64,000 nt of DNA, from assembly GCA_050951805.1 (NCBI GenBank), contig JBMNJT010000003.1, forward strand, positions 96,001 to 160,000. The letters are read 5' to 3'. Below are positions 44,259-64,000 of this stretch, piece after piece (positions within the stretch are counted from its first letter, which is position 1; the number at the start of each line of letters is the position of its first letter). This stretch comes from Bacillota bacterium. GTDB lineage: Bacteria > Bacillota > DTU025. The notes below the pieces were generated by a model that worked only from the letters and a program-made list of their open reading frames with translations, did not search any database and was not told where the DNA came from. The position numbers were made by a program, and so were the translations under genes.

Positions 44259-44311
44259 AGATATTGAAGGCGGCTATAGAGCCTAAGTCCTGCAGGCAAA
44301 GGCATAAGCCG

Positions 44312-44358
44312 TGGCCTGCCGCAAGGATGCGGCGGCCAGTATAGACACTACAAGGAGG
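44312..44358 (+). promoter_or_regulatory. Two candidate CsrA binding sites in the flagellin leader
   Basis: Hairpin gccgca-AGGA-tgcggc, and a second CAAGGAGG overlapping the RBS. Confidence 0.65.
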
Positions 44359-44367
44359 TAGAGATAA

Positions 44368-45884: not shown

Positions 45885-45906
45885 GGGGCGGCCTTCGGGC
45901 TGCCCC
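45885..45906 (+). terminator. Hairpin after flagellin
   Basis: ggggcggcc-TTCG-ggctgcccc. Confidence 0.7.
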
Positions 45907-46555: not shown

Positions 46556-47422
46556 TCATATGGCTATAGAATCCCGAAGTTCCCTGAATACCCGCGCAGT
46601 AAAGCTGGCGTTGCCCTTTAGGACTGGCACATTGCCCAGCTGGTTGCACGGACACTTCCCGCTAGTTCTAACCATAGTCTTTGCCTCCGAGCATAGCTGT
46701 TGAGCTTTACCCTGGTCGATCTTAATGCTCCCAAATCGGGGAGCTGTGCTGGGTAAGGCGCAGGCACTTACAGATTCGCCGTTGGCCTTTTTCACTCGCA
46801 GCTTGGCCATGATGTTGGCCCCTTCCTCGGACCATGACATCGGGCGGCTGGACATGCGATCCGAATAGATGTGGCTTACATGGCCTTCTGCACTGCAACC
46901 TACTACTTCCTGGTAATACCTCCGCCGGTTTTCGATTGCGCCCCACATGTTCGATATGTAAGTGCGGCATCTCTCAACGGATTTTGCCTGACCCTTAGTT
47001 ACCGTGGTGGATCCCGCTTCATCCAGAATCTCGAAGGTTTTGCTGCGCTCTGCTGAATCTACTGCCTTCCATAGCTTGCTCATCAGTTTTTTATCGCCAT
47101 GACAAGCAGCTACAATGTATTTGCGTAGATGGAACAGGTCAGGCAAGCGCACCCCATTCACCATGAATTCGGCCCCAAACGTTATCCAGTTGGCTCCATC
47201 CCCAGTGACGAAGATTATCTCTATGGAGTCGATATCATAAGTCTGCTCTATGTACCAGTATACTTCCCACCAGAGCTCCTCAGTGTCCTTGTACATTCCT
47301 CCAAAGTATTTCGCGTGCACCAGCTCGGTGCGGCCACGTCCAACCCTCTTTCGGCCCTCATGAACGTATACAAGCTTCGGTTCTAACCGCATTCGCTTAT
47401 TCCTATTATGCCGAAAACACAA
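46556..47422 (-). mobile_element. ISLre2-family (UPF0236) transposase, N-terminally truncated
   Basis: KLVYVHEG, GDGANWI, DLFHL, GCSAEGHVSH, RMSSRPMSWS; N-terminal part and terminal repeats not found. Confidence 0.8.
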
Positions 47423-47679
47423 GATGAGTTCGATCTTAATGTTGACTTTAATAAGCAGGCTCTGGGCAGGATGGTAAAGACCATACTCGAGCCATTCGGG
47501 TACTCTTGGACGGGGCAGGAGAAGCCCATTCGAAGAGAATTGTCGGATTTCATCACATCTGCTGCAGTGTATTCACTGGACTTTTAAGATCAGCCAAAAC
47601 TCGATCTTGTCGTTGGGCCCTTGATGGCGAACATAAAGAGGAATGCCTTAACGGCAAATCTAGCCGGGATTCACGATCC

Positions 47680-47713
47680 GTGTCACCTGTGCCCTTTTAA
47701 GCGCAGGTGACAC
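47680..47713 (+). terminator. Hairpin immediately upstream of the intron 5' end
   Basis: gtgtcacctgtgc-N8-gcgcaggtgacac, then ctt, then the intron start. Confidence 0.75.
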
Positions 47714-47716
47714 CTT

Positions 47717-49566
47717 GTTCGCCCGGCATGTTTGTTGAGCCGATGGACTGAAAGAAGTCCTGTCACCCAACCAGCGGGAAGACAACCTCAAGGCAAAGGC
47801 GTCGCTGAAAGCGGCGGGGTCTGAAGGAAGCTTTAAGGGGGAACACGGAACGTAGCGAAAGCGAACCGAAGTTGGCCTGTCAGGTGGGTAACCTTGCGAA
47901 GTATGGGAAAGCCCGAAAGCTGGATAACCTGGGGGGGTTTGACGGACGGGTTCGTGTTCAGGCAGACAAACTTAACCGGGGAAGCTCTGCATCATCCAGA
48001 TAGCTGGTAAGCCCAAACAAGCGGAGACGCAAGGATGGGAATATGTGGTGTGGGGTGGCAGATGAGTCCGTAGTAGTTATGAACCCTCAGCCCATGAAAG
48101 CTGGCAACAGACCGGAGGATAAAACTGAGGGGACAGCGGCCGGGAGCTGCTGGGCTGCATTGGCCAAAAGCCTATGCAGTTGCGAAGGGACGAAGGCAAA
48201 CCAAAGCGTGCAACCTAGTTACAGGCAAGCATGGGAGAGAGATAACAGAGGCTGAAATGCCGATGGGAACGGGGGAGCCGGGGGCGACGAGTCTGCTGGT
48301 CCCTGCGCCCGCTCAGCAGAGTATCAAAGTTTCGCGGGGTAGATTGCCTTAGAGCTGCATACAGGGCCGTCAGGGCCAACAACGGGGCTTCCGGGATAGA
48401 CGGTGAGACCGTGGACGCCTTCGGCGAGAACCTGGAAGCCAGGCTGGCAGAGATACCGAAGCCAGACGGAAGCAAAAGGCCTCTTGGCATACCCACCGTT
48501 GGCGACAGAGTAGTGCAGCAAGCGCTGCTCAATGTGGTTCAGCCAATCTTCGACCCCGAATTCCATCCATCGAGCTATGGGTACCGACCCGGGCGATCCT
48601 GTCATCAAGCAGTGGCAAAGGCAGAGAGGTTCATTAATCGCTACGGTCTCAAGCACGTAGTGGACATGGACTTGTCAAAATGCTTTGACCGACTCGATCA
48701 TGACCTGATCATTGAGCCTGTGAACCGAAAGGTCAGCGACGGAAGCGTACTTAAGCTGATCCGGAAGTTCCTTGAAGCAGGAGTCATGAAAGACGGGGCC
48801 TGGGAGGAAACAACCATAGGCAGTCCGCAAGGCGGAGTAATATCGCCTCTTCTTGCCAACATCTATCTTGACTACTTTGATCAGAAGATGAAGTCAAAGG
48901 ACATCAGGATAGTGAGGTACGCTGACGATATACTCATCTTTGCGCGGACAAGGCGACAGGCGGAAAAGTTCTTGGAGATAGCGTGCGAGATCCTTGAGGG
49001 CGAGTTAAAGCTCGTTGTGAACAGGGATAAAACGCACATAACCAGCGTCTATAAGGGAGTGCCCTACCTTGGGTTTGTCATACACCCCAAGAAGCTGGCG
49101 AAGTTCAAGGACGCCGTCCGCAAGCTGACTCCCCGCAATCATGGGATGAGTGTTGAGCAGATGGTGAAGCGACTGAACCGATTCCTTATTGCAAACTGCA
49201 AGACGATAGTAGCCAGCCTGATGGGGTGGATAAGGCGGCGTCTGAGGATGAAGCAGATGAGGGAGTGGAAGAGCTGGAGGGGCCTGCATAAAGCACTTCG
49301 AAGGCGAGGCTACTCAGGCGAATTCCTGAAGATATCCATGAGACGATGGAGGAACTCGGCAAGTCCTCTGGTCAACATGGCGCTTCCTCAGGCTTGGTTC
49401 AGTGAGATAGGACTGATTGACCTCACGAAGTATGAGGTCGGCGTCTTGCATCTCTTCTATGAAGCGAAGTGACTAAGGTTTGCCAGGAGCCGTGTACGGG
49501 GCCCGTACGCACGGTTCTGTGAGAGGGATGACGCCAGGCTGATTACCTGGCGCCACCCTACTCGAT
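47717..49566 (+). mobile_element. Group II intron, IIC-like
   Basis: 5' GTTCGCCCGGCATG; domain V gagccgtgtacg...cgtacgcacggttc; domain VI ending cctactcgat; internal RT ORF; insertion behind a stem-loop. Confidence 0.85.
48411..49472 (+). pseudogene. ltrA: Intron-encoded RT/maturase without En domain, probably inactivated
   Basis: IPKPDG-RPLGIP, SYGYRPGRS, DLSKCFD, PQGGVISPLLANIYL, RYADD. Upstream in-frame RAVRANNGASGIDG lacks a proper start, and several conserved stretches appear deleted. Confidence 0.8.
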
Positions 49567-50137
49567 ATGTCAGACTGTGCAACCGATGGCGTAGTAACTG
49601 ATGTCAGAGCCCCAATACAACGAAGACGTAGTAGCAAGGGGTAAATCTATGGGCCGTATCGACAACGTAGACACTGATGCTATAACACAATCGATTGTGT
49701 CATCCTTTTCACCCCTCACAGACATGCCTGTATCAACCTCCGTGGACGCTGATTGGCAAGAGGAGCCTGCTTCCGCTTACTTTCCAAAGCAAATGGCTGC
49801 GTTGGTTGATCATAATCGGAGTCAGTGGAAACCAGCATACACGGTTTCAGAAAACAATACCTGGCTCAGCGTGATTGTGCATTTCGAGATTGGTCACCAT
49901 TTGCTCATATGAGCGAGGCCGTAAAGCCCAGATCATTGATTCAGTAGCGGTGGTAGCAAAGCAAGACCAGGTGCACGATGCATTTTCGATCGTTACACGA
50001 CAAAAGGGAGCAATTGAGATTATGAGCGCCGGCGGATGCAGCCGGTGTTTGCGGTTACACGAAAGATACGGTGTCGCCCGCTTGTACTCAGCCTGCAGTG
50101 TTTGACCTAATTCAGACCCGTCCCTGGCCACCTCACC

Positions 50138-50545
50138 TCAGGGCCGCTCAGTCAGTCCCAGCTTTTCTTTGAGTGCATATTGCAGAACTTGTGAGAAGTT
50201 TATCCCCTCTTTTTCCGCTTCTTCATTGAGCCATTGCGGGATGGTGAGTGTCTTCTTGATGGACTTGTTACTGATCTCGTCCCGTATTGGCTCGGTCCTT
50301 GCAGTTACTAACGTCACAAATGCATCGCTTGGTAAATGCACAGAGGTAGGCTTGGAGGGAGAGGAAATCTCGTCGCCATCCCGCTCCATCCCATATAGAT
50401 GTAGAGCTAGGGCTTCTGACGCCATCCGGATTGCGTCGTCCAAGGTATCACCTTCCGTAACACAACCGGGCAGATCCGGAAAGGTAATAGTATATCCGCC
50501 ACACTCATTTGGATCGAAAACTGCAGGATAAATATACTTAGCCAT
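50138..50545 (-). CDS. hicB: HicB antitoxin
   Basis: YIYPAVF, FPDLPGCVTEG, KKTLTIPQWLN...INFSQVLQ. Confidence 0.93.
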   Translation of the reverse strand: MAKYIYPAVFDPNECGGYTITFPDLPGCVTEGDTLDDAIRMASEALALHLYGMERDGDEISSPSKPTSVHLPSDAFVTLVTARTEPIRDEISNKSIKKTLTIPQWLNEEAEKEGINFSQVLQYALKEKLGLTERP

Positions 50546-50578
50546 CTGTATCAAAACCTCCTGGCATGGCCGAACTCC

Positions 50579-50770
50579 TCATAAAAGCCCAGCCTGCTTA
50601 AGTATGGAGCTAACTGTCTTGGGAGCAAGCCTTGTCTTCGGATGAGGGATGGTAACTTTGCCGGGCTTCGTTAGGTGTTTGAACTGGTGGTGACTTCCCA
50701 CAACGGCTACCAAGTACCACCCATCTTGTTCTATGAGTTTGATCACCTCGCGGGAAGACATGCTCTTCAT
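50579..50770 (-). CDS. hicA: HicA toxin
   Basis: DGWY...GSHHQFKH...GKVTIPHP...SILKQAGL. Confidence 0.93.
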   Translation of the reverse strand: MKSMSSREVIKLIEQDGWYLVAVVGSHHQFKHLTKPGKVTIPHPKTRLAPKTVSSILKQAGLL

Positions 50771-50791
50771 GGCAACCTCCCTCTTGGCCAC

Positions 50792-50821
50792 ATTATGACA
50801 CGTATCAAACATACGTGTCAA
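50792..50821 (-). promoter_or_regulatory. hicAB promoter with overlapping operator palindrome
   Basis: TTGACA-18 nt-CATAAT on the minus strand; perfect inverted repeat TGACACGTAT-N5-ATACGTGTCA at 50796-50820. Confidence 0.8.
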
Positions 50822-51158
50822 CAGGATTTTGAGTAGCTGAGGAATGGAACAGAGATTCGCTTCAGCCGGCTACTACGAGTATGCTTGGGTCATCGCCCCG
50901 GGCACGCCATGGAGGCATTCAGGAGGTGCCCGTTGCCTCGTACATGGAGTTAGCGTTGAGTCAATAGAAGACTGAATTCACCGATGCCTGGATCGCCATG
51001 TGTCTCCGGTAATCCATGGATTGCCTCGCTTCAGAAATAGGGTTTCGACAATACACGAATCCTTATCGGAAAAACGCGCTCACGAAACGTGAGGAATATG
51101 TCTGAATACCGGTACTGCGACGCCGTAACGTAACAGGATTGAAAAGGAGGATTGCCAC

Positions 51159-51512
51159 GTGAACCCGTATAGGACTATAGGTCAACGCCTTCAGCGGGCG
51201 CGTGAACGAGCTGGACTCACCCAATATGAGGTGGCTGGCTACTTGGGGGTGAAGCGCGAACAGATATCGCAGGTAGAGAACGGCCACCGCAAGGTGGATG
51301 TCATTACCCTGACCAAGCTTGCTGATCTCTACAGCTATTCGGTTACGCACTTCGTTGATCAGGTGGCACCGGAGCAGAGGGATACCTCCATTGCGTCTAG
51401 AGCCCAGAAGATAGATGAAGAGGATCTTGAATCGCTTCGCTGGATAAACCGTTTTGCCCGTAAACTCAGCGAACTGACGAGCCTGATCGAGCGGAGGTCG
51501 AAGGATGCGTAA
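51159..51512 (+). CDS. XRE family HTH regulator
   Basis: IGQRLQRARERAGLTQYEVA...ISQVENG; AGGAGG RBS. Confidence 0.9.
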   Translation: MNPYRTIGQRLQRARERAGLTQYEVAGYLGVKREQISQVENGHRKVDVITLTKLADLYSYSVTHFVDQVAPEQRDTSIASRAQKIDEEDLESLRWINRFARKLSELTSLIERRSKDA

Positions 51513-52240
51513 AATGGAGCAGATTGCAAGTGTGAGAGCAGCTAAGGCCCGGCGTAGCCTGGGAGTGAGTGCCTCTGAACCAGTTGATGTCATCAAGCTG
51601 CTCAGAGAATACCGCGACATCAGCTTCGTTCTCAGACCATTTGTGAGCGACATCTCCGGTATGTTTGTGCGTTCCTATAGAGCAGAAGTTATTGCCATTA
51701 ACACGGCCAGAAGCCTTGGCCACCAGCGTTTCACTGCAGCGCACGAGTACTTCCACCTCCTCTATGACGAGGGAATGCTCGGGGCTGCCTGCAAGGTTGG
51801 TGTAGTGGACCAGCCAACTTTACGAGAGGCTGAGGCAGATGCTTTTGCATTATGCCAGGTGAGGGAATTGGCGCGCGCGTTGTGGCGCGCACAGGCGGCA
51901 AGCGCGGTCTTGCCATGGAGGATGTCGTCTACTTGGAGCAGCATTTCGGAGTGAGTCACAAAGCAATGGTCAGACGCCTTCGGAATCTAGACCATATAAG
52001 CGCGGACCAATTCGAGCGGATGTGGAGCCTGCCAATCCGTCAGGCAGCTCGAACACTAGGCTACGATATAGCCCTTTACATCCCAACGCACGAAGACAGG
52101 ATCATATCATCGTACGCCGAGAAAGCGACTCGGATCTGATTTCGTTCGGCAAGTACGAGCAGTTGATGCAGCGTCACATCAGCCAAGGGGAGTCTCTCGA
52201 ACTGAAAATGATTGCGGAGGGCGATATCGCTGACGAGTAA
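51505..52240 (+). pseudogene. ImmA/IrrE Zn metallopeptidase, frameshifted
   Basis: QRFTAAHEYFH and EAEADAFA; the continuation (MP...FGVSHKAM) is in another frame, with a second shift near 52130. Confidence 0.8.
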
Positions 52241-52249
52241 TTCCAGTTG

Positions 52250-52531
52250 ACTCAAGCCTCTAGGAAACCCAGGCCGCAAGAAGCAGCGATATAATACGTT
52301 CGCTTTCGTGGCGGCACGGTCGCAAGCAACAACCTGAGAGATGTTAGGGAATACTGTGAGGAGCATCATATGGGGCTCATTGAAACGGCAGACATCATGT
52401 GCCATGCGGTAGCTCAAGGGCTCATGTCGATTTCAGACGGTGAGAATCTTTGGAAGAGAATGAAGGCTCGCCGTCGCAGACTCCCGGATGGGGACTTCGC
52501 CGATGTGTTCAGGCGTGTCCAGGATTCTTGA
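52250..52531 (+). pseudogene. PIN-like protein C-terminal remnant
   Basis: Manual translation EAAI*YVRFRGGTVASNNLRDVREYC...ETADIM...GENLWKRMKARRRRLP; no start, internal TAA at 52292. Confidence 0.55.
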
Positions 52532-53034
52532 ACGATGTATAGTTGACCCCGATAGGGCTCGGTTATGATCAAAACCGGTGAAGCGGTGTCAAGAGATGGG
52601 AAATGAGCTGCCATGAGACTGGCGATTGTGAGATAAGCCTGGGCAACCCGGCGCGATTAACCACTTTGTGACTATGTTCTCAAGGCTGATGGCACCGATG
52701 TAGGCGACGAGGGAGCGGTCTCCTGGGCTAATAATCTATCCGATGAAGAATTGGAGACTGTCGTGTGGGCAAGAGGACTCGTTTCCGACATGGCGGTACT
52801 CGACAATTTACTCAGGGGGGCGGGGCATTGACGTTGCGAGCTACCGATTGCACATGTGATTGAAGCTAAATTCCAACTGGCACCTGGAGTTCACCCTCAA
52901 CATGATGCAGTAGAAGACGAGCTTCTCTGGGCGTGGCCTCTAGACCCGTCGCGCTGAGCTGCAAGATGTAGACGCCATAGCCCATGATGCCAATAAGAGC
53001 CAGTCCAAGTTGCTTGCATATGAACCTTCATCCG

Positions 53035-54375
53035 TCAGGCCAGCTGTATATCCAAAGCCTCCATGGAGTCGCAGCGTTTCCTGGCATCGTAGGACTCCTC
53101 AATGAAATAGGCGACTCGGATGCCAGGTTGAAGTTCATGCTTGGGCCCCTTGAAGGCCTGTCTATTGAAGTAGTAGTTGTTGCCATCATCGTCCCTGATG
53201 AACCCGGCTCCAGATGGTAGCAGGTTTGCCACTGTGCCTGTCCCGCGGGGGCTGAGGTTTAGTCTGACGCTCTGCCAATATCTCTCAAGCTCCGGCTTGA
53301 GGTCATGGAAGCTATCGATGTCATTATCGGTAATCCCAAGGCTACTACAGACACTGTCGAGCTTTGTGTTGGTGCCCCAACCCATCCGTTTCCGTTCTCC
53401 CGCGGCATAGGCAGCATGCTTTTTCGCCATATCATCTTCGTTGCACGCTATGAGGACCTGAGCGATTGTGAGAAAAACCTCCCATCTTTTGCTCATGTCG
53501 GTGGAATTGTCTATAGCAACTGCTTCTACTCCACACCGAAGCGCGGAATCCAGATCCCCCTTGCCCAAATATGCCTTGGCCAGAACATGCCTGATAAACC
53601 ACTCTTTCTTCTGGCGAAGGACCAAACGGAGAATCTCGATCGCTTCATCATGCCGGCCAAGTTCAACAAGGCACACACCTTTTCGGTATTTCATCCAGAT
53701 CTCGAAAGTTGGATGAATCTCGGGAAAGGCTGTGAGTGCTTCATCGCAGAGGCATAATGCCTCCTCGTGGCGTGCAAGGGATTGCAGAGCCTTCACGCTA
53801 GCGTTGTAGTAACGTTCTCTGTCTGACGGCGTTCTGATTTGTTTGCCATCATTTCCAGTCCAATAGCTCGCATTGGTCTCAAGCTCGTGGGGGTCGAGCC
53901 TGCCGGTCCATTCCAAAACCTGCTGGGCTGCGCTACTAGTGGCCCTTGGGCCAAGATAGTTCGTCACCTTAAAGCACGTGAGGATGTATGGAGACATGCG
54001 CGAATTCCATTGGCCTTCCGTAAGACGGACTATTTCATTTGCTGCCCCAAAAAACTCCTGCGGATTATCGGCGATTTCCTCGCGCTCCTTCTTGGCGTAG
54101 AGGTAATAGAGGCACCACGCGTGCACGTTTCGTATGGGGCCAAATTCCGGCCATTCCTGTTCTACCTCGTGGCATACAGCCAGGCTCTGCTCATAGTGGC
54201 CGACATGCTTAAGGCAGAATGCAAAGCCCCACCCGTCCCATTCGTTCGCATTGCCTCTGTGTTGCTCCCAGATGACGCTGTAGAATGGCAAGGCCTCTTC
54301 GATGCGGCGCCCTTTGCGCAGCTCCTGTGCTTTGCGCCGCAGTTCGCGCAGATCCGCTTGCGTCGACTCTGTCAT
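53035..54375 (-). CDS. TPR-repeat protein with C-terminal cold-shock/OB-fold domain
   Basis: TPR-like helices (YRKGVCLVELGRHDEA, LAKAYLGKGDLDSAL); C-terminus GTV...GAGFIRDDDGNNYYF...GIRVAY. Confidence 0.85.
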   Translation of the reverse strand: MTESTQADLRELRRKAQELRKGRRIEEALPFYSVIWEQHRGNANEWDGWGFAFCLKHVGHYEQSLAVCHEVEQEWPEFGPIRNVHAWCLYYLYAKKEREEIADNPQEFFGAANEIVRLTEGQWNSRMSPYILTCFKVTNYLGPRATSSAAQQVLEWTGRLDPHELETNASYWTGNDGKQIRTPSDRERYYNASVKALQSLARHEEALCLCDEALTAFPEIHPTFEIWMKYRKGVCLVELGRHDEAIEILRLVLRQKKEWFIRHVLAKAYLGKGDLDSALRCGVEAVAIDNSTDMSKRWEVFLTIAQVLIACNEDDMAKKHAAYAAGERKRMGWGTNTKLDSVCSSLGITDNDIDSFHDLKPELERYWQSVRLNLSPRGTGTVANLLPSGAGFIRDDDGNNYYFNRQAFKGPKHELQPGIRVAYFIEESYDARKRCDSMEALDIQLA

Positions 54376-54438
54376 TCTCCATACCTCCGATCAATTATGG
54401 GCTCTGCTGCAAAAGCGTCACTTGTCTGTCGCTAGCTC

Positions 54439-55278
54439 TTAAATGGCGGCCATAGCCTTGTAGTTCCGCTCCAATTCCGCAAAGTCATAACGCACCTCGT
54501 CAAGTTCGGGAAAGGCAAGTCCGCGCGCATGAGCTTCGTCCTTTAAGGCTATAGCCAGATCTATGAAATCGAAGTCGCACTTGGCATACTTCTGTAGCGT
54601 CTTGTAGTACACATCTGCCCGCCTCATGGCGGCCTCTGCAGATTGAGACGGGGAAGCACTGGATGATTCGCCGCCTAGTAGACTTGTGCGAATGGGTGCC
54701 CACAATTTGCCGATGCGGGCTGCGTCTTCACTGTTTGCGGGAGGAGTAGTGAACCTCAGCTCAAGTTGGTGCTTCGCTGTGTTGTAAATGTCGATTCTTG
54801 CTGGGACTCCCTGATTGAATAGGAGGTTCAGCCTTACATAGTGGTTGTAGATCCCGGCAAACTCCGCTTGGATGCCCGACTTCGCTAGGGCTTTCAGAAG
54901 AAGGTCGGCTGCGGTCCTGGCCTGCTCTATTCTCGTGTGGTTGGTGGCTGGCGTATCTTGCATGATCGGCCCAGGTTGCCGGGGTTGCCTTGAGCCTCCA
55001 GCCAAGCGGCAGCCTGTCGCAGCGCAGATCTCACAGAGAGTGCTTGCTGCGACATCATCGCGAATCGCCGCGAGATTGGCTGTGTATACAGCCCTATTGG
55101 GAGAGTAGGCCAGAAGAATATCGCCGATGTAATGCTTCCCCTGCGTCACTCTGAGCCTAGCCTGGTAATCGCGGAATCCGTAGGGATCAGTTTTGGCCAG
55201 AAGTTCGGGGCTCGTCTCCCCAATGGTTTTCTCCAGCTCCTGGTATTTCACTGCCAGCTCTTCTTTGCATTTGGTCAT
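54439..55278 (-). CDS. Hypothetical protein with two TBP-like alpha/beta repeats
   Basis: Intact 279-aa ORF, ATGA-coupled to the helicase; repeats DYQARLRV...GDILLAYSP and NHYVRLNL...ARIDIYNT. Fold call is inference. Confidence 0.7.
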   Translation of the reverse strand: MTKCKEELAVKYQELEKTIGETSPELLAKTDPYGFRDYQARLRVTQGKHYIGDILLAYSPNRAVYTANLAAIRDDVAASTLCEICAATGCRLAGGSRQPRQPGPIMQDTPATNHTRIEQARTAADLLLKALAKSGIQAEFAGIYNHYVRLNLLFNQGVPARIDIYNTAKHQLELRFTTPPANSEDAARIGKLWAPIRTSLLGGESSSASPSQSAEAAMRRADVYYKTLQKYAKCDFDFIDLAIALKDEAHARGLAFPELDEVRYDFAELERNYKAMAAI

Positions 55279-58200
55279 GGCCTGTCCACCGCCTCCACAT
55301 TCTTGAACATGCTGAGTGTCACGAGCAGGTCAGCCAGAGCTTCCTTCCCCTCGTCAACAGTGCCCTGTTGGAGAAGCGCATTCCGAATGTAACTTGCGCG
55401 GGTGATGATCCGGACGCATTCTATGCCCGAGTGGAAGCGCTCCAGTAAAACCTCGTTCATGGCCGCAAAGATCTCCGTATTCTGGTCATGGATGAAACGA
55501 TGAACCTGGACATCCCCATTGCAGCCCAGCTCGACTTGGTCTCCCCTGATCGTCACTTCGAGTGTGATGTCGGGGACAGACTTTTCGTCCACTGGGGCAA
55601 GGCAGGGGCGGAACTTGCCTTCACCTAGGAGATATGCAAGAAACATCATTGCTGAACTCGCATTTATCTGGCTTGCCCATGGACGAGATTCATAGCCCCT
55701 AAGGCACCTGTGGCAACCTTGCCTGTCGCAGTCGCAGCTTGCCACAATCTCATAGGCTTCCGCAAAAAGCTCCATCGAATCGAGATCCGCATAGATATCC
55801 TCGAGTCGCAGACAGTTGTTGCCGGTTGCATCGTATAGCGCCACGTATACAACTCTGTTAGAGCCCGGCAAGGGCGAATCGGAACTTGGGACGAAGTCGG
55901 CATCTATCATCATGCCGATTTCAGAATCATCCAGCTTGTACATGCTCTTGATCCCTCTGAGGATGGCGAGGGAGGTGCTTATGTAAAGCGATGCGTCGCC
56001 GCATACATCCCGCTCAAAACCGAAAACGAGCGTTTCCCGTTCCATCGGATACTCGATGATGAAATGCCGTTCTGTCGATTGATCGAGGAAACCTGTATCT
56101 TTTCTTCGATCGGGGCTGATCGGGCCCCTGTTTGCGATGGTGAGCTGGGCATGGCGTGAATATCCGGCCCATAGCACGGCTCTGTAATTGCGCCCCGTAT
56201 CTATTCGGTCGAGTTTGCATACGATATCTTGCCTGAGAAGGCGTGGACGCTTCTCCGCAAAGAGCTCGTCTTTTTGCGCGGCGAAGGCGCGATAGACGCG
56301 GGACTCGTCGAAAGCAAGCCCCTCTGCCTGGCGGGATTCATATTCCCCGGACGCAAGGATTATGAAGACGTCTCCTGCCATGTGAACCTGTTGGCCCGGC
56401 ACGAATATGTAGGCTGCTAATTCTGGGTCGCGTGAGGATATGATGATTTCATCGGTGAACGTGTGCGCCCCTATCTCTTTTGCACGCCGGAGACCCTCTT
56501 CATCGCAGACAAGCACTTGGTCGTCCCTGAAAGCAAAGTCAGGCATTAGGTTCGTCTGATTGTAAAGGAACTGCTCGAAGGAGCCCACCCGAGAAGCGGC
56601 GGGTTCCTTCAATGCTTTGATCGCATTTGAACACAGCTTGTTCCCGAGGTATTGGCCTATATCCATCGGGACATCGATGACGTTTCTTATCTCCTCTGCG
56701 AACCTCTCCGGCTCTTCAGCAATTTCTGCAATCCTCTGCCGGAAGCCCGCTTCATCCGAGACATGTCCTGCAAGCGCCATGGCGTTTGCATGCTCGACAG
56801 CGACTTTGAGGTTTTTGGCATTGAATGCCGGCGGTGAAACCACACCATCTATCATTCTGTGGGGATCATGGTAATAGACCATGTCGTTGGGGTTCTGTTC
56901 CGAACAGATTGTGACGATCAGCGAGTGCCCGCCACCTTGGCCCCGTCCTGCCCTGCCCGCCCTTTGGGCGTAATTCGCCGGTGTAGGGGGCACACCCATG
57001 AGCAGGATGGCTTGAAGCTTCCCAATGTCGATGCCCAATTCCAGCGTGGGCGTAGCCACTACCATGCTTATCTTGCCTGCTGCGAAATCTCTTTCGGTGT
57101 CAACACGGTCTACCCGCCTGATTTCAGCGCTGTGAGGCCTTACCCGGTCTGCAAGCTCTTGCCAAACCTCATGGATTGACGCAAATTCAGACGGTCCTAG
57201 GTCGAATTTGAGCTGTTTGGGGGATATGTAGAAATACTGTTTGCCATCGGGTGTGATCCGTTCGAGAAGCGGCCCGCGGCTGACAAGATCTTTAACTATC
57301 GACTTCACCTTCGCCTCTCCGGTTCTGGCTACCATCTTCAGATGTTTGCAGTTGGGGTTGGTCGACAGCGCTCTGCCGGGGTAGTCACGTAATCCAGAGC
57401 GTTGCCCCTCGAAATGGATGCCCAAAAGCGATGTGGCCTGGTGGAGCGAGTATCTTATCGCCCGACCCTCGAGGTCTGCTGGCAGACGCGGAGCTTGCTT
57501 GAGTATGGCGCGTTCCTCCACAAAGACTGACAATACGTCGAGTTCATCCTGCTTAAACTGGTCAGCATCGACAATCTGCATGAACTCGCGCTTTGGCCCA
57601 ATGTTGCGCGAAGGAATTGATATGAAGCGGGCAAACCAGACATCGAATTCCTGTGCAAGATTGCGTTCAGGCTCGGACATCCCGCTGGCGAACTCGGCCA
57701 ATTCCTCTTGAAGGCCGAGGTGAGCTTCTTCGATATTGGATGGGTTGTGTTGAAGGCAGTATATCCTCAGCATTTCCTCAAAAAGGGCTGAGGCGAACTC
57801 ATCGTCAAGGATTCGAGATTGTCTGGTGGCTTGCTCACGGCTGTCAACGAAGGCAAGCAGCTTTCTTCTGGGCCTAGTGGTATCCAGCATGGAACGGGCT
57901 ATGCAATGCGTGTATTGATAGTCGGCAAACTTTGGCGACATCAAAACCCCAAGCGCCTCTATTGCCTCGTCACCGTCTACGCGGAGACGTTCTATAGATA
58001 ACGGCCCGTTCTCATCGTAAGCAAACTCAATTGACCCGTAACCGCCGATCTGCGCTATGGAGACCCTGAAGGTTTCTGTGCAACCTCTGCCTTCCGCCGG
58101 CGCATCGTATCCGACAAGAACATATACTTGCAATCCTCGACTGCCCTCATCCGCTTCGAGGTGAGGAAGCAGGCGGCTGCTTTCAAGCCTGGCGATGCAT

Positions 58201-59687
58201 TTTGCTGTATCTTTGCCATACACGAAGAACAGGGGGGCGCCACATTTGGTGCAGCTTTCCGATTGCCCGGCGTGATACTTCCCACACCTGATGCATCTTC
58301 TGAGCAGGCCTTGGATTTCGTGCATGAAGAGGTGGACTCTGAAGTCGAGCACAGGATCGGGACGGTTGTGCGGATTTGGATACGCTCTTGCAATGCTCGA
58401 GTCTATGAAAGATGCAGCAGCCAGAGATCCCCGCAGAATCTCTTCCGGGCTGCCTGCTCCGGATATAGCGTCACTTACGGCGCCTGACAACTCCTCCATG
58501 GACTTCGACCCTTTGCGCAACGACTCTGCGATCGCTTGCATGCACGGGCTCGAAAGAAGGAGCGCGCGTGGGCCATCCGGTGCCAAAAGCCGATCAGGAT
58601 CGGCGAGATCTTCGCGGGTGAAAGAGGTGCCAAGTAAGGAGTTGAGGTTGGCTAGCGCGGCGCCGGGAGAGTCCATTGAAGCCACATTGTATCTGAAAAC
58701 CTTGCACGCGTTCGTGGTTGCGGATTGCAAGTTTGCCTGTGGCGGGTTTTCTGGACGGCCTGACTTGGCAGCCGGACGCACAAGGTCGTATTCGTCTGGC
58801 GCTACGTCCAACAGCGGACAGATGAACCTGTTCACAGCTTCGCCCGAGTTTCTTGAATCCAATGTGGCACTGCAACATATCTGCACGACGGGATTGGGAA
58901 CGGCGTTCTTCAAGCGCCTGAGGAGAAATCGAAGGTGAGTCGCGCGATTGCCCTTATAGCTATGGACTTCATCTAGCACGACAAAACGCAGATGATGGCA
59001 GCACTCTGTGAAAAGCCAGCGCTCCTGCGAGCGAGTGAGCATCCTGTCGAGCATCACGTGGTTGGTGACCAAAATATCGGGCGGTTCTGCCAGCATCTCG
59101 GATCTGTAAGCCAGATGGAAACGGCTCTCTCTTTCTACCGTTGCTTCCAATTCGTCGCGGGGAGTATCGCCGGTGTATACACCGTATGTTATCTCCGCTG
59201 CCGAGGCGCATTCGCCTATCCGCCGGAGCTGGTCGGCGGCCAGCGCATTTGTGGGATATACGATGACAGCCTTTATCCCTTTTTCACGTTCGCGAAGACA
59301 GTAGTCGATTACGGGGATGAGGAAGGACTCGGTCTTGCCGCTTCCCGTTCCGGTGGCGATCACGGTATGCCGGCAGGACGAAATGCTTCGGACAGCTTCC
59401 TCCTGATGCGCGTACAGCCGCTTTATTTTGGGGAATGGACCAGGAAGATTCTTGCTGAGGCCTATGGCTGCGCACAATTGGCCAAAGGGCAGTGCGCTCA
59501 TCTCATATCGCGGGTTTGCCGAAAGAAAAAGGCGGCCGCTGAGCTCGAGAGATTCCATTATCCACTTGACATCTGAATCCCTCGACACCCCGGTCTTTAG
59601 AGCGTGTCTCGCCAGGTTGGCATAGGCATCGCTTACATGCTTTGCAGCCGCGATCGGGTCATACAAGCCGCCGCCATCACGTTGCAT
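55275..59687 (-). CDS. Large SF2 DEAH-type helicase with Zn ribbon, DUF1998/MZB-like domain and C-terminal RNase H-like extension
   Basis: LYAHQEEA, TGTGSGKT, YPTNALAADQ, DEVH, SAT, CIRC...CTKC, TPTLELGIDIG, QRAGRAGR, CDCDRQGCHRCL. Confidence 0.9.
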   Translation of the reverse strand: MQRDGGGLYDPIAAAKHVSDAYANLARHALKTGVSRDSDVKWIMESLELSGRLFLSANPRYEMSALPFGQLCAAIGLSKNLPGPFPKIKRLYAHQEEAVRSISSCRHTVIATGTGSGKTESFLIPVIDYCLREREKGIKAVIVYPTNALAADQLRRIGECASAAEITYGVYTGDTPRDELEATVERESRFHLAYRSEMLAEPPDILVTNHVMLDRMLTRSQERWLFTECCHHLRFVVLDEVHSYKGNRATHLRFLLRRLKNAVPNPVVQICCSATLDSRNSGEAVNRFICPLLDVAPDEYDLVRPAAKSGRPENPPQANLQSATTNACKVFRYNVASMDSPGAALANLNSLLGTSFTREDLADPDRLLAPDGPRALLLSSPCMQAIAESLRKGSKSMEELSGAVSDAISGAGSPEEILRGSLAAASFIDSSIARAYPNPHNRPDPVLDFRVHLFMHEIQGLLRRCIRCGKYHAGQSESCTKCGAPLFFVYGKDTAKCIARLESSRLLPHLEADEGSRGLQVYVLVGYDAPAEGRGCTETFRVSIAQIGGYGSIEFAYDENGPLSIERLRVDGDEAIEALGVLMSPKFADYQYTHCIARSMLDTTRPRRKLLAFVDSREQATRQSRILDDEFASALFEEMLRIYCLQHNPSNIEEAHLGLQEELAEFASGMSEPERNLAQEFDVWFARFISIPSRNIGPKREFMQIVDADQFKQDELDVLSVFVEERAILKQAPRLPADLEGRAIRYSLHQATSLLGIHFEGQRSGLRDYPGRALSTNPNCKHLKMVARTGEAKVKSIVKDLVSRGPLLERITPDGKQYFYISPKQLKFDLGPSEFASIHEVWQELADRVRPHSAEIRRVDRVDTERDFAAGKISMVVATPTLELGIDIGKLQAILLMGVPPTPANYAQRAGRAGRGQGGGHSLIVTICSEQNPNDMVYYHDPHRMIDGVVSPPAFNAKNLKVAVEHANAMALAGHVSDEAGFRQRIAEIAEEPERFAEEIRNVIDVPMDIGQYLGNKLCSNAIKALKEPAASRVGSFEQFLYNQTNLMPDFAFRDDQVLVCDEEGLRRAKEIGAHTFTDEIIISSRDPELAAYIFVPGQQVHMAGDVFIILASGEYESRQAEGLAFDESRVYRAFAAQKDELFAEKRPRLLRQDIVCKLDRIDTGRNYRAVLWAGYSRHAQLTIANRGPISPDRRKDTGFLDQSTERHFIIEYPMERETLVFGFERDVCGDASLYISTSLAILRGIKSMYKLDDSEIGMMIDADFVPSSDSPLPGSNRVVYVALYDATGNNCLRLEDIYADLDSMELFAEAYEIVASCDCDRQGCHRCLRGYESRPWASQINASSAMMFLAYLLGEGKFRPCLAPVDEKSVPDITLEVTIRGDQVELGCNGDVQVHRFIHDQNTEIFAAMNEVLLERFHSGIECVRIITRASYIRNALLQQGTVDEGKEALADLLVTLSMFKNVEAVDRP

Positions 59688-59973
59688 ATAGCCTGCCCCC
59701 CCCACTGAAGAAGTATGAGGGTTTAGAACCTAATCATGATATTCGCACCAAATAGATGAATACCCTTCTAGATTCGTCCATACCATTTGCGAGAATTGCA
59801 TGAAATTTGTAGGCACAAGGGCCGGAAAAGGCGTTACGCAATGTGCAGTCGATCGATTTTCACTATATTTGAAAACAGGAAGGGATCCTAATAGCTTCCT
59901 GCGAATCAATTACATTATGGAACAACAATCGTTCCATTCATGTTCAATACTGAAAAGACGGGAGGGAATCAAC

Positions 59974-62900
59974 TTGGCCTCGACATCGATATCGAGGTTC
60001 TACGACTGGTTCGTTGACACGCTCACAGATGAGAAGCTCGATCAGGTGATCGATGAGGTCGTGGGGGGCGCAAAACATGCGGGCGCACCGCGCAAGCGTC
60101 CCCCCAAAGGAGGCTCGCTGCCCATTCTGCCACCCGACTGGAAAACTAGGTTCAGTTCGGAACAGAAGCGAGAATTCGTGGCAATGATGTGGAAACGCGG
60201 CGTAAGGGAATTCACCGAGCACTTCCATGAGGAATACGCAGAGTGCAAGGAAAAAACAGACTCGTACACCCTCGACAAGATCGAGGATGAAAAGGACGAA
60301 CTGATCAGCGCCTACGGAGGTCCGGCTGTTGTCCTTTGCCTGGTGTTGCAGCCACTCGACTACAAGCAGGAACTGGGCCTTCGGATCATGGATGAGCTTG
60401 GCGACACGTGCAAAGCGCCTCGCCTCAGCGGACATGGGTCTTACGACTTGGCTTTAGGATTGCGAGATATTGCATCGGCGCTTCGCTCAGGCGAAATCGA
60501 TGTCTCTGAAGACTCGATGGAAGCTGCCCTTTCTGATGTAGCCAGAGCATGGGCCGAATACAAGGAGACAAGCGTGGAGAGGCTCATCACTCGGATCGAG
60601 TCGACGCTCAACTTGATGGCAGAGCCATACACCGCATATTCATCCTTTTTCAAGGTTGCCCCGGGCCTTCCTATGGAAATAGGCGCATATGATAGCCTTG
60701 ATGGGGATGACGCCCGGGCGGTCTTAGCCGAACTTGAGGCTGTGGCCGACAAGGTCAACGAGACACGTGAGTTGTTATCACGGCCAGGATTGAGTATCGA
60801 TGAAGTCGAAGAGCAGCTTACTGCCGCGAAAGCTGCGCATGAAGAAATAGCGGCGGCAACCGAACGGGTTATGACGCGCTTGCCCCAGAAGCCTAATCCC
60901 CCCGAGGATCCTACCCCCCAAAACGACTCAGACGGCAAGAAGATTCACCACACCCAACCGCCAACCCCGCCTGAGCCCGATCCCCAGTCCAAAGAAAAGG
61001 GATCTTGCTCGAAATCTACATCGGACTTGGATCCAGGATTGAATGGCCCCTCCGAGGGTGAACCTGAGCCAGAAGAGGAGCCGGACACTGACATAACATC
61101 AGATGAGGAGCCTGGCGAGGCAGAAGAGACTAGTAATGAGTGGGCTGATGGGGAATCCCCGAGTGCTGAAGCCTGTCCCGCACAGTCTGAAGCGGAGCCA
61201 GAGCCTGAAGCAGAACCCGAGCCGGAGATTGAATCGGTTAGGCTCCGCACTTGTCAACGGGAAGAGTTGTCCCAACCCTGTGATCTGAAGTCCGCTATCA
61301 GAGATGCGCTGGCCGCCAAGGATTACGTTGTCGCTTACTGGTTGGCTCGCGAAGCTGAAGCCAGTAATCGCGCCAGTTTAACGTTGCCTTCATGGCTCTA
61401 TGCCGCGTGCTGCCTGGGTTCGGGCGAGTACGCTGCGAACCCGTATGCTCTACGGGCCCTCGACATCATCTACACAGAGCATTCAGCCCCAATGAGCGAG
61501 ATACGTGGAGAGCGGAGGCCTGGCGAAAGCCATGCTCCCTATTACGTCATTGCCGCCTCCATTGGTCCCGCCTTGTTCTCTCCCGACTATGCGGCCTTGG
61601 AATGGTTGAGGGATGCAGAACGCAACCTTGGTGCCAAAGATGAGACCCTTGTCTTGCTGGTAAGAGAGGTCCTAGATCTTCGCGCGCGTGTGAGCGGGGG
61701 CGTAGCTTTCGCGCTTGGGACTCAAGATCAGCGAGCCTCAGCAGTTGATTGGGGCGAAATGGCCAGCATGACGGCTCGACGGATTGAAGATTGGGTCGAG
61801 GTTACAAGAACAGCCAGGAGCAGGTACCTTCACGCTACTCGGGCCCAAAACTACCTTGCTAGCGTTGAGTCGCCTCTTTGGCCTGCAATCGAAGCGGCTA
61901 TGAGCAATGACCCGAGCCGCATCGATACAGTGAATTCTGCATTGAACAGTGATCTATCAGGGCGTAAGGCCATGGAAACACTCATTGATAATGCGGTGAA
62001 GATTACTTCGGCCACAGCCCCGAAGCGAATAGCGCTCGAGGGGCGAACTCGGGACGACGTGCTCAAGAAGGTGGAAAACCTTGCCCAACTTCTTAGCGAC
62101 TGGAGCGCAGCCGTTGCCCATGAGAGAGCGTTCCAGTATGGCGGTGGCTCTGGTGAAGGTGTGACGGCCCGATTGAGGCATATCGGCAAGCTGGCTTCGG
62201 AAGCCAAAGGCCAACTCTCGGAAGATGGAGGATCTGCTACTGCTCTGTCGGATGCCCTTGAAATGGTGGCAAAAGCGATTGATGACGGCGTGCTGCCGCA
62301 ATCCGCGGATGGCACAAGCATGTGCGATAGCGCATGGAAACGCGAACTCGTGTGCCCTCTCTTGCTAATTGCCAACCCACCCGCTGAGGAAATATCTAAA
62401 TGGTTGGAACAGGGAAGCTTTGGGCTGCCCGACTTCGAGTCGACACGCAATGGGAAGCCGGGCTTTTCTGAAACCGCAAATCTCGCTGCTGAAAGTATGG
62501 AGGAGGCATTCTATGCCCACATCGTTCGCGGAGACTTTCCTGCGGCGCGGCTTGCCATGTCTTACCTGTCGCCCGTAGATGATGAGCATGAGTCAACTCG
62601 TTCAAAGATCAACGCCGCATATGACAGGGCTGTGAAAAGTCTGACTAGGGAAGCCATGAATAGCGTGAAGACAGCCCGCAACAAACTGGAGGAGTCGACT
62701 CTGATGCACTTCGTCAACGATGCGGCGCGAAGCCGGCTTGAAGGGGAACTTCTCACGGCCGAGGATTGGCTTGCAAGATCCCAAAGCGCTCCATCAGAAG
62801 CGGTGAATGTAGGAGAGGTATCCGCTCAAATCGATGCTGTCATGAGAGAACTCGATATCCTCAAGAAGGAACGCGCTCGATCATTGGCTCGACAGGTAGA

Positions 62901-64000
62901 AGAGTTCGATCATCAGTTGGATGTCGGACAGAAGGACCTGGCGCAAGAGGTTGCCAACGCGGCGCGGATGCATCTTCAGACTGCGCGCCAGAAGCTGGCG
63001 GAAAACGATCTTGTGTTGGCAGATCATTACATTGTCACTGCCGAGCAGGTGGTGGATCTTGGAGAGGTGTTTGAGGCCGAAGAGAAGTCTCCCAAAGATC
63101 ACCCATATGTTCTGGAGTTCTGCGACATTGCAGGCAAGATAGAGCGCTACTTGGAGGATTACAGAGGACGTCCCGCAGATCTCGTGTCAACGATTCTCCG
63201 CATCCGAAATCCTATCGGGCTCAATATGCGGCGCGTTCCCCCCAAGCGCGTCGAAGAGGCAGAGGCCGGCCTTGAAGCCTACTTCTTCCTCAAAGGCAAA
63301 CGAAGATCGGCAGATGAACCATGGTTTGCCGACAACCTCAAGCTGCTTTTGAGCTTTGTAGGGTTTGGCAGGCCGAAAGTATCACTCACTGCATATGACT
63401 CGCAGTACGCTTACTTCAAAGCCACCATGGATGGCGAGAATATGTCGCCCCTGGCCGATTTCGGTTCTGAGCGAAATCGTTGCTACGATGTGGTGTTGAT
63501 GTACGAGCGGCCTAGCATCACGCAGATGCGTCAGATACTTGGAAGGCACGGCCTGGAGACGTCTAGACCTGTTATCATCTACATGGGCAGAATGCGGCCT
63601 GCCCAAAGAGGAGAATGGAGTGCTGCCTGCAGGGCTGAAAGGATCACCGCCATGTTTATCGATGAGGTTCTTCTGGTCTTTCTCGCCTCAGTCAGAGACA
63701 ACAGACTGGAAGCTGCTGTAGAGTGCGGAACCGCCTGGGGGTGGGCGATGCCCTACAAATCAGCAGGTAAGATTCCCCCTGAGATCTTCATGGGACGGAA
63801 GCAGATGATAAGGCAGATAGGCGAGCCCCGTGGAAGCTCGCTTGTATATGGGGGTCGGCAATTCGGAAAGACGACCCTTCTGCACATGGTCGTACGCGAG
63901 TATCATCGTCCGGAGCGTGGAAGCTTTGCCTGGGTTGAGGAGATCAGGAATGTAGGTTCGCCTGAGGATCCCTATGGTTCCTCCCGGGTATGGCAACTCA
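59974..64000 (+). CDS. Giant (>1340 aa) STAND-type NTPase protein, 3' end outside window; absent from the ORF track
   Basis: Read manually: GGAGGG RBS, TTG at 59974, no stop in frame 1 to the window end; PY...IPPEIFMGR, then Walker A GGRQFGKT at 63850-63873. Confidence 0.88.
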   Translation, partial: MASTSISRFYDWFVDTLTDEKLDQVIDEVVGGAKHAGAPRKRPPKGGSLPILPPDWKTRFSSEQKREFVAMMWKRGVREFTEHFHEEYAECKEKTDSYTLDKIEDEKDELISAYGGPAVVLCLVLQPLDYKQELGLRIMDELGDTCKAPRLSGHGSYDLALGLRDIASALRSGEIDVSEDSMEAALSDVARAWAEYKETSVERLITRIESTLNLMAEPYTAYSSFFKVAPGLPMEIGAYDSLDGDDARAVLAELEAVADKVNETRELLSRPGLSIDEVEEQLTAAKAAHEEIAAATERVMTRLPQKPNPPEDPTPQNDSDGKKIHHTQPPTPPEPDPQSKEKGSCSKSTSDLDPGLNGPSEGEPEPEEEPDTDITSDEEPGEAEETSNEWADGESPSAEACPAQSEAEPEPEAEPEPEIESVRLRTCQREELSQPCDLKSAIRDALAAKDYVVAYWLAREAEASNRASLTLPSWLYAACCLGSGEYAANPYALRALDIIYTEHSAPMSEIRGERRPGESHAPYYVIAASIGPALFSPDYAALEWLRDAERNLGAKDETLVLLVREVLDLRARVSGGVAFALGTQDQRASAVDWGEMASMTARRIEDWVEVTRTARSRYLHATRAQNYLASVESPLWPAIEAAMSNDPSRIDTVNSALNSDLSGRKAMETLIDNAVKITSATAPKRIALEGRTRDDVLKKVENLAQLLSDWSAAVAHERAFQYGGGSGEGVTARLRHIGKLASEAKGQLSEDGGSATALSDALEMVAKAIDDGVLPQSADGTSMCDSAWKRELVCPLLLIANPPAEEISKWLEQGSFGLPDFESTRNGKPGFSETANLAAESMEEAFYAHIVRGDFPAARLAMSYLSPVDDEHESTRSKINAAYDRAVKSLTREAMNSVKTARNKLEESTLMHFVNDAARSRLEGELLTAEDWLARSQSAPSEAVNVGEVSAQIDAVMRELDILKKERARSLARQVEEFDHQLDVGQKDLAQEVANAARMHLQTARQKLAENDLVLADHYIVTAEQVVDLGEVFEAEEKSPKDHPYVLEFCDIAGKIERYLEDYRGRPADLVSTILRIRNPIGLNMRRVPPKRVEEAEAGLEAYFFLKGKRRSADEPWFADNLKLLLSFVGFGRPKVSLTAYDSQYAYFKATMDGENMSPLADFGSERNRCYDVVLMYERPSITQMRQILGRHGLETSRPVIIYMGRMRPAQRGEWSAACRAERITAMFIDEVLLVFLASVRDNRLEAAVECGTAWGWAMPYKSAGKIPPEIFMGRKQMIRQIGEPRGSSLVYGGRQFGKTTLLHMVVREYHRPERGSFAWVEEIRNVGSPEDPYGSSRVWQL

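Follow-up and report, generated by a model that had tools for sequence, protein, structure and literature searches.

A three-gene helicase operon of a Bacillota bacterium as a predicted, reduced derivative of the TALON conflict systems

Do a helicase gene and the two smaller genes that follow it in a Bacillota bacterium make up a novel anti-phage system, or an altered form of one that already has a name? The question is raised by positions 53035-59705 of the window, i.e. the whole 64,000-nucleotide stretch of DNA analysed here (GenBank assembly GCA_050951805.1, contig JBMNJT010000003.1, positions 96,001 to 160,000). As ascertained from the listing of open reading frames (ORFs) and their translations, this region is filled by three intact, co-directional minus-strand ORFs encoding a YprA/MrfA-type superfamily 2 helicase, the double-repeat protein P0002, and P0003, in which tetratricopeptide repeats (TPR) are fused to a cold-shock domain (CSD) of the OB-fold type (Table 1). 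We consider it reasonably probable that the operon is a reduced derivative of the TALON systems, that is, a predicted anti-phage or conflict system in which a pair of sensor proteins acts with a YprA/MrfA-family helicase of the ARMADA-Druantia lineage as the only effector.

As far as the accessible text of the defining preprint goes (Bell et al., bioRxiv September 2025, PMC12458937), TALON comprises an ARMADA-like YprA homologue, a NERD-type PD-(D/E)xK endonuclease, a TPR-CSD fusion and a TBP protein. The same text states that the TPR-CSD and TBP proteins are common to TOTE systems, that an inactivated RNase H fold at the C-terminus is unique to TALON helicases, that ARMADA is their nearest helicase lineage, and that TALON is a computational prediction only, largely confined to Chloroflexota, with the NERD nuclease "typically" present. 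In the accessible part of a second preprint, on Druantia III-A (bioRxiv 10.64898/2026.05.13.724758), TALON is listed among the uncharacterised YprA-helicase defences. The preliminary description of the locus had presented as novel and untested an operon in which an SF2/DUF1998 helicase with an RNase H-like tail is joined by two TOTE-type partners, one of TPR-OB and one of TBP-like type. Its reading of the domains was largely borne out, and our literature search likewise yielded no experiment on such a system; its claim of novelty was overstated, since this type of system has already been named TALON in the accessible text of PMC12458937 and the window helicase falls inside that clade. What is new here is a reduced, apparently non-Chloroflexota TALON variant lacking both nuclease modules, it being understood that Supplementary Tables S1/S2 of PMC12458937 may already contain NERD-less or non-Chloroflexota TALON loci.

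The assignment to TALON follows from several lines of evidence. First, a search with the full-length helicase returned two close relatives (80% and 67% identity), then 64 cluster representatives (P0045-P0108) with 24-35% identity, most of them over 91-99% of the query; from P0109 on, coverage of the helicase was at most 37%, and many such proteins carry PF04480, PF18741 or PF27116. One of the 64 representatives, P0068, retrieved ten loci from species-representative genomes, nine of them Chloroflexota metagenome-assembled genomes (Anaerolineae, Chloroflexia and other) and one from Desulfobacterales. In a FastTree phylogeny of 81 helicases (the window protein and its two relatives, 61 clade members longer than 1300 amino acids (aa), nine from the loci and eight outgroup sequences, the three shorter clade members being omitted), the window helicase and its two relatives are placed within the TALON clade, on a long branch that adjoins the group containing P0077.

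Second, the ATPase/helicase motifs, the zinc cysteines and the MZB domain of the window helicase are intact, judging from its sequence. Motif I (GSGKT, 59331-59345) and motif II (DEVH, 58962-58973) are conserved at their key residues, G121-T125, D245, E246 and H248 being identical in all 73 TALON-clade sequences aligned. Two CxxC motifs lie in an insert between the RecA domains (C471, C474 and C485 conserved in 73/73, C488 in 64/73), and by its position this insert may be the candidate counterpart of the Zn beta-barrel with CxxC motifs that the accessible text of PMC12458937 places there in TALON helicases. The Pfam model PF09369 matched the MZB/DUF1998 domain at 6.3e-8 on the helicase and at 2.7e-9 on the fragment alone, and its cysteines C1331 and C1334 are conserved in 73/73.

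Third, the C-terminal ~130 residues of the helicase can be aligned across the TALON clade, and the tail is, on the evidence of its model, an RNase H1-like fold. Its AlphaFold 2 (AF2) model has a mean predicted local distance difference test (pLDDT) score of 81.3 and the topology b1-b2-b3-a1-b4-a-a-b5. A VIA search against representatives placed cellular RNase H1 or the RNase H of retroviral reverse transcriptases (RTs) in all of the top 14 rows (Z 7.6-10.0, 97-100 residues aligned), and each of the 50 Foldseek matches listed is to an RNase H or an RT (E from 1.7e-4). The assignment of the fold rests on structure only, because Pfam gave no hit on these residues, RNase H included, and a hidden Markov model (HMM) of the RNase H segment of TALON TBP proteins had no significant match to the tail. 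Alignment A3, of this tail with the tails of ten related loci, has no invariant acidic position, and the canonical acidic catalytic residues of RNase H are not conserved in it. From this alignment and the statement in the accessible text of PMC12458937, we infer that the tail is catalytically inactive. The helicase-DUF1998-RNase H-like architecture proposed earlier is thus borne out, by Pfam for DUF1998/MZB and by the AF2 model, VIA and Foldseek for the tail.

Fourth, P0002 and P0003 are, by sequence, orthologous to the TBP and TPR-CSD proteins of TALON. The gene order in canonical loci is helicase, an ORF of 627-683 aa, a gene of ~400 aa and a gene of ~435 aa. P0002 matches the ~400-aa TBP gene in nine of the ten P0068 loci (E 1.8e-24 to 3e-10), the tenth, L014, ending inside the helicase gene, and P0003 matches the last gene in eight of the ten (E 1e-100 to 4e-22). 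Aligned over its full length with nine counterparts (alignment A4: eight of these ten loci plus L020), P0003 shows 25-37% identity, the L018 counterpart standing at 20%. The latter is recognised by Pfam DUF7017 and S1CSD-TOTE-2 ("S1/CSD-like domain 2 of the TOTE conflict systems"); P0003 had no match to S1CSD-TOTE-2 reaching E 0.1. P0003 itself matches the PADLOC model PDLC01170 ("TPR repeats fused to cold shock-like domain (OB-fold)") at 6.8e-61 over residues 8-444, in agreement with its earlier reading as a TPR-cold-shock protein. A prediction of the P0003-P0002 complex scored 0.00 and was used neither for nor against binding.

The gene between the helicase and TBP genes of canonical loci encodes NERD and UvrD-like helicase domains (Pfam NERD plus UvrD-helicase/UvrD_C) in all four loci scanned, and an ORF of 627-663 aa occupies the same position in the other six loci with sequence there. 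The canonical TALON "nuclease" is therefore a NERD-SF1 helicase fusion, so that a canonical TALON has two helicases; the accessible text of PMC12458937 mentions only NERD for the nuclease. The surroundings of these loci speak for a defence role: those of Chloroflexota lie in defence islands with BrxC/DUF6079-like, RiboL-PSP HEPN, Eco57I/MmeI-type methylase, GmrSD and HerA-type neighbours. As a side observation, two genes of canonical loci are split, namely the TBP gene of L020 (129 + 253 aa, 6485-7642) and the NERD-UvrD gene of L011 (508 + 145 aa, 10574-12500). These splits may be frameshifts, assembly errors or decay.

None of Pfam, PADLOC and NCBIfam gave a family match for P0002. In an exhaustive HMMER search, P0002 matched 35 proteins at E <= 1e-3, six of them at <= 1e-10 and most of ~400 aa. 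Eleven of the 35 (including P0005, the window's own protein, entered as P0002) were aligned with P0006 and P0007 to give alignment A1; the long repetitive proteins P0029, P0031 and P0043 were excluded from it as noise, because of their unrelated Pfam content. The two halves of the family alignment are homologous in a profile-profile comparison (hhalign probability 90.4%, E 1.4e-6, 68 columns), so that P0002 is an internal duplication. Its single-sequence model has a mean pLDDT of 58.2 and is good for residues ~120-200, in repeat 2. The fold of this repeat matched, at Z 6-8, KA1, DUF302/TT1751, the RnlA N-domain, the C-domain of phosphomutases (PGM) and Bet v1/AHSA1-type proteins, folds which we take to be grouped with TBP in a "TBP-like" fold class. 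The "TBP-like repeat" of the preliminary description thus holds for the two homologous repeats, but TBP itself is not among the listed fold matches and the Z values of 6-8 come from a low-confidence model. According to the accessible text of PMC3710099, the N-terminal domain of some RNase LS (RnlA-family) HEPN proteins has been called TBP-like, and the equivalent domain of RNase HIII has been linked to the binding of RNA:DNA hybrids.

The second nuclease module of canonical TALON lies within the TBP protein. The Pfam RNase_H domain (profile positions ~4-140 of 141) sits between the two repeats in nine of the 15 family members scanned, and in A1 this insert keeps the motifs DGS, E, D and H...D, presumably the catalytic set of E. 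coli RNase HI. To judge from these motifs, the RNase H of the canonical TALON TBP protein is probably active. The insert is absent from P0002, from its close relatives P0006 and P0007, and from P0026; in P0002 a short linker stands in its place, and the deletion seen in A1 is clean and in frame. As an aside, P0026 (301 aa, 23% identical to P0002) is a second TBP-family protein without the insert, and its candidate partner, the helicase P0064, for which the longest contig has an equal length (39112 bp), sits in a different part of the helicase tree. The insert may thus have been lost more than once, in P0026 independently of the window lineage.

The first module, the NERD-UvrD gene, is missing as well. 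The stop codon (TGA) of the helicase gene overlaps the ATG of P0002 as ATGA, which leaves no room for a gene between them. In the genome, which is 97% complete, the NERD family PF08378 had matches only at two places on another contig (C2), and tblastn with two TALON NERD-UvrD proteins found no orthologue. Since the sister-group locus L020 (that of P0077, from Anaerolineaceae) keeps both modules (a 633-aa gene and the split TBP gene, next to TPR-CSD), the reduced form is a derived loss. The two diverged relatives keep the same protein lengths, their TBP proteins being 73% and 64% identical to P0002.

Could the operon instead be a decaying remnant, non-protective since the loss of the NERD-UvrD gene and the RNase H domain? 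Both canonical nuclease modules are missing, the island holds a truncated UPF0236 transposase ORF, and 400 other genomes from the host phylum yielded no copy of the system. Against this, all three frames are open at canonical lengths, with the helicase motifs and Zn cysteines intact; two relatives at 64-80% identity share the architecture; the RNase H domain was removed cleanly, without a shift of frame, and the ATGA overlap joins the helicase and TBP genes. The sequencing runs argue in the same direction: RNA-library contigs cover the operon and a nearby stretch is silent, and near-identical DNA (all sampled words) occurs in 14 DNA runs of seven studies (metagenomes of sludge, bioreactors, landfill and soil), although the source may be among these runs. 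We therefore regard decay as unlikely.

The RNA evidence is as follows. Three RNA runs from two studies contain 93%, 67% and 21% of the sampled words. When the runs were compared with positions 50000-64000, an RNA contig of run X15 (55109-59615) bridges the helicase/P0002 junction, a second RNA contig (53989-55114) bridges the P0002/P0003 junction and a third spans 53193-53906; parts of the operon without RNA contig cover (e.g. in X17) were given no reading. Simple carry-over of DNA is argued against by the stretch 50934-51400, in which the DNA run reaches a depth of ~19 and all three RNA runs a depth of zero. The contigs of X15 are interrupted from 59615 to 59962, at the divergent intergenic region upstream of the helicase gene, through which the DNA contig continues; this is a weak hint of promoters there, and a promoter/terminator scan found sites no more numerous than in shuffled sequence. 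As a separate observation, contigs of X1 (DNA) and X17 (RNA) each leave the window sequence at 52814 with an identical 30-nt continuation, and the long X1 contig ends at 52775, which points to a structural variant, or to the edge of a repeat, ~220 nt downstream of the stop codon of P0003.

On the other side of this intergenic region lies a divergent gene for a 2047-aa protein (window 59800-64000 and beyond, L002:101-6244), with an acidic, proline-rich low-complexity stretch. The protein has a Pfam AAA_22 P-loop domain at residues 1344-1491 and no PADLOC match, and its C-terminal 748 residues resemble AAA_22/nSTAND/NACHT NTPase clusters of the Atlas with scores of 0.96-0.98. It may be a separate STAND-type conflict gene. 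One could also imagine that it replaces the lost nucleases, the real unit being a hybrid of STAND and TALON core: the two start codons are only ~112 nt apart, the NTPase resemblance fits, and both genes are covered by RNA-library contigs. This we find rather improbable, as phmmer detected no homologue of the 2047-aa protein or of the next two ORFs in the 12 loci L009-L020, which include all 11 TALON loci retrieved, as PADLOC has no model matching it, and as adjacency within a defence island is weak evidence. Overlapping ORFs of 475 and 253 aa, of no known family, follow the 2047-aa gene.

As to distribution, P0002 gave one marginal match (E 0.009) in 400 other genomes of the host phylum and none in 400 others from the phylum to which a Chloroflexota TALON carrier belongs. 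A word-indexed search of 5.8 billion clusters with P0002 retrieved the protein itself and the two relatives only, and a metagenome scan found two contigs, each with a P0002 match that is 100% identical to the P0002 of the window. Searches of genome contigs for related loci found nothing with P0003 alone or with the close P0002 alignment A2, and with P0026 found one weak locus (L009), in which no helicase or TPR-CSD match was present. These data bear on the possibility that the system repairs DNA as a housekeeping function, as MrfA/YprA does (mitomycin repair), the two small proteins then being accessory factors that bind DNA or RNA. The family does include the repair helicase MrfA (accessible part of bioRxiv 10.64898/2026.05.13.724758) and the MZB domain is present; however, the nearest relatives of the helicase clade are ARMADA/Druantia-type proteins, the operon lies in a variable insert, and such a patchy distribution (the operon was not found in the 400 host-phylum or the 400 further Chloroflexota genomes) is untypical of housekeeping repair. 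We hold this explanation to be very unlikely.

We propose that the reduced TALON derivative would work as follows. The TPR-CSD protein and the double-repeat TBP protein would form a sensing or targeting module, in which the OB fold/CSD would bind single-stranded nucleic acid, the TBP-like repeats, together with the dead RNase H-like tail of the helicase, would bind RNA:DNA hybrids or single-strand/double-strand junctions of replicating foreign DNA, and the TPR array would act as a protein-binding regulator. Sensing of single-stranded DNA (ssDNA) or RNA:DNA hybrids by the operon proteins is what we infer from these parts. The sensor proteins would recruit or release the helicase, which would translocate along and unwind the invader DNA at the expense of ATP; it would be the sole effector, DNA cutting, if any, coming from host nucleases. 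A nuclease-free helicase effector is plausible because DruE of Druantia III-A is reported to work with its PLD domains dispensable: according to the accessible part of bioRxiv 10.64898/2026.05.13.724758, DruE binds exposed ssDNA, unwinds 3'-to-5' and clears phage without harm to the host. More tentatively, and as a possibility rather than an expectation, we suggest that the three genes may function as a minimal TALON without nucleases, the sensor pair and the helicase being the sufficient core of the whole class, to which NERD-UvrD and RNase H are dispensable add-ons.

Several points weigh against the reading of the operon as a TALON derivative with a helicase effector. No experimental test of any TALON or TOTE system was found in the literature, so that homology and context are the grounds for the word "defence". 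The canonical system's two predicted nuclease modules have been lost, a picture that decay would give as well; the reduced form is seen in three lineages only, with gene neighbourhoods seen for the window copy alone; and the placement in the FastTree phylogeny was judged by topology, with no regard to support values. Contigs assembled from RNA reveal neither strand nor expression level nor the ends of transcripts, and DNA may be present in RNA libraries. The inactivity of the tail was read from the alignment and the preprint rather than from a residue-level superposition, the catalytic positions being our own assignment. Lastly, the P0002 model is poor, its middling fold scores may reflect only a common arrangement, and TBP and RNase HIII N-domains are missing among the 50 fold-match rows listed.

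If the three genes do work as such a minimal TALON, the unwinding or stripping of invader nucleic acid by a helicase, with a dead RNase H fold and TBP-like binders of hybrids as its guides, would by itself be an immune effector mechanism. TALON and TOTE have been named from comparative genomics only, and this natural three-gene, apparently non-Chloroflexota version, which RNA-library contigs cover and which has lost both predicted nucleases, is the smallest construct for testing the class. Should it protect, the helicase and sensor pair would be the core and the nucleases accessories, in parallel with unwinding by Druantia III-A; should it not, the nuclease modules would be marked as essential.

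Table 1. Positions of the operon, its protein domains and the surrounding features (window positions unless a locus is named).
Feature	Position	Strand	Remarks
YprA/MrfA-type SF2 helicase gene (TALON clade)	55275..59687	-	likely ATG start at 59687; stop overlaps P0002 ATG
RecA1/DEAD domain, residues 99-286	58848..59411	-	Pfam
Two CxxC motifs, C471/C474 and C485/C488	58242..58295	-	insert between RecA domains
RecA2/Helicase_C, residues 854-921	56943..57146	-	Pfam; motif VI QRAGRAGR at 56943-56966, 73/73
MZB/DUF1998 zinc-binding domain, residues 1247-1335	55701..55967	-	Pfam PF09369
C-terminal RNase H1-like fold domain (by model), residues ~1375-1476	55278..55583	-	AF2 model, VIA-align, Foldseek, alignment A3
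P0002, double-repeat "TBP" protein, 279 aa	54439..55278	-	TALON TBP orthologue by sequence, without RNase H insert
P0002 repeat 1, residues 5-76	55051..55266	-	hhalign against repeat 2; model confidence low there
P0002 repeat 2, residues 112-205	54664..54945	-	helix, four strands, helix; pLDDT 72-88
P0002 C-terminal helical domain, residues 211-279	54442..54648	-	most conserved family motifs DFDF..LA and (R)YDF..LE (invariant A1 columns)
P0003, TPR + cold-shock/OB protein (TPR-CSD), 446 aa	53035..54375	-	
P0003 DUF7017/TPR, residues 226-342	53350-53700	-	Pfam DUF7017 and TPR families
P0003 CSD, residues ~376-446	53038-53250	-	
Divergent intergenic region	59688..59799	.	between helicase gene and 2047-aa STAND-like NTPase gene
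Insert flank, FliW + flagellin	43782-45843		
Insert flank, csrA, fliD, fliS	L002:10925 onward		
UPF0236 transposase fragment	46556-47422		matches profile positions 177-392 of 400 only
Group II intron RT/maturase ORF	48411-49472		
HicB	50138-50554		open
M78/IrrE-like peptidase ORF	51505-51954		open
Sir2-family gene	L002:10014-10823		
NERD-UvrD genes scanned in canonical loci	L010:14155-16206; L015:4526-6409; L018:4709-6592; L011:10574-12500		Pfam
Defence neighbours of canonical loci	L010:5433-9981 + 18762-20678; L016:892-5349; L017:126-2123; L012:19067-20863		

As to the layout of the locus, the preliminary description had the coordinates right, with three intact co-directional genes, the ATGA overlap and a gap of ~63 nt. 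The helicase protein has 1470 aa from the ATG at 59687, which is preceded by a G-rich run resembling a ribosome-binding site and with which the database copy (P0008) begins, or 1476 aa if the alternative GTG at 59705 is used (ORF 55275-59705). Direct reading of the sequence confirmed the overlap and the gap between P0002 and P0003 (63 nt), and showed GGAGG upstream of the P0003 ATG. The operon lies within an insert of ~25 kb (window ~45900-64000 plus L002:1-10900) between flagellar genes. The earlier view that the other genes of this island are mostly decaying is right for the truncated UPF0236 transposase ORF, but HicB, the M78 peptidase ORF and the 2047-aa gene are open. Elsewhere, the host has FlgI and FlgA (P-ring) flagellar genes, and the genomes sampled from its phylum differ from those of the Chloroflexota sample, which is weak evidence that it lies outside Chloroflexota. 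Two tandem genes for 619-aa methyl-accepting chemotaxis proteins (window 22258-26071) lie upstream of an ordinary flagellar/chemotaxis cluster that includes FlgG-like, FlgA, FlgI, FlgK, FlgL, CheA, CheB and CheR.

How does the operon compare with known systems? The usual partners of DISARM, Druantia and Dpd systems are absent, as the preliminary description had noted, PADLOC giving no match for P0002, P0004 or the next ORFs. DISARM was rejected, the helicase having only weak partial matches to DrmA (2.2e-21, residues 854-961); PADLOC matched no DrmB, DrmC or methylase model to P0002, P0003, P0004 or the eight ORFs that follow P0004, and the ORFs scanned on both sides of the operon are free of Pfam methylase and PLD domains. 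The best PADLOC match of the helicase is to DruE3 (models at 2.9e-75 and 5.2e-73), which would suggest Druantia type III (DruE + DruH). We give this identification almost no credence: the match covers residues 90-472 or 90-503 only, no DruH model matched P0002, P0003, P0004 or the following ORFs, the full-length relatives are those of the TALON clade, and PADLOC 2.0 (2023) predates both ARMADA and TALON. The helicase does share with Druantia type III the YprA/MrfA-type architecture with MZB and insert domains, which makes that system a likely mechanistic model, but DruH and the PLD domains are lacking, the tail is an RNase H-like fold according to its model, and the partners are TPR-CSD and TBP.

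With ARMADA types I/II the link is that the next-best database matches after the TALON clade include Vsr-type PF04480 proteins, whereas the window locus has no Vsr nuclease tail and no BrxHII-like helicase or methyltransferase partner genes. The likeness of P0002 to the N-terminal TBP-like domains of RNase HIII and RnlA is at the level of fold only: in a low-confidence model, repeat 2 superposes on RnlA N-domains at middling Z values (6.6-6.9), and nucleic-acid binding is only predicted. The TOTE conflict systems (TPR, OB, TBP, Effector) were reportedly described by Aravind, Iyer and Burroughs in 2022. Compared by second-hand description, through the accessible text of the citing preprint and a Pfam family name only, the window has candidate counterparts of their components, a TPR + OB(CSD) protein and a TBP-type protein beside an effector, with DUF7017 in P0003 and S1CSD-TOTE-2 in its TALON counterpart; it differs in that the effector is a YprA-family helicase and in that P0003 itself falls below the S1CSD-TOTE-2 threshold (E 0.1).

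The closest likeness is to TALON. The window operon lacks the NERD-type PD-(D/E)xK nuclease gene (with its UvrD-like part), none having been found elsewhere in the genome, and its TBP protein lacks the RNase H insert of nine of the 15 family members scanned. In common with TALON it has a helicase of the same clade and of the same full-length architecture, including the C-terminal tail of predicted RNase H fold, together with TBP and TPR-CSD genes that are orthologous by sequence and stand in the same order and orientation.

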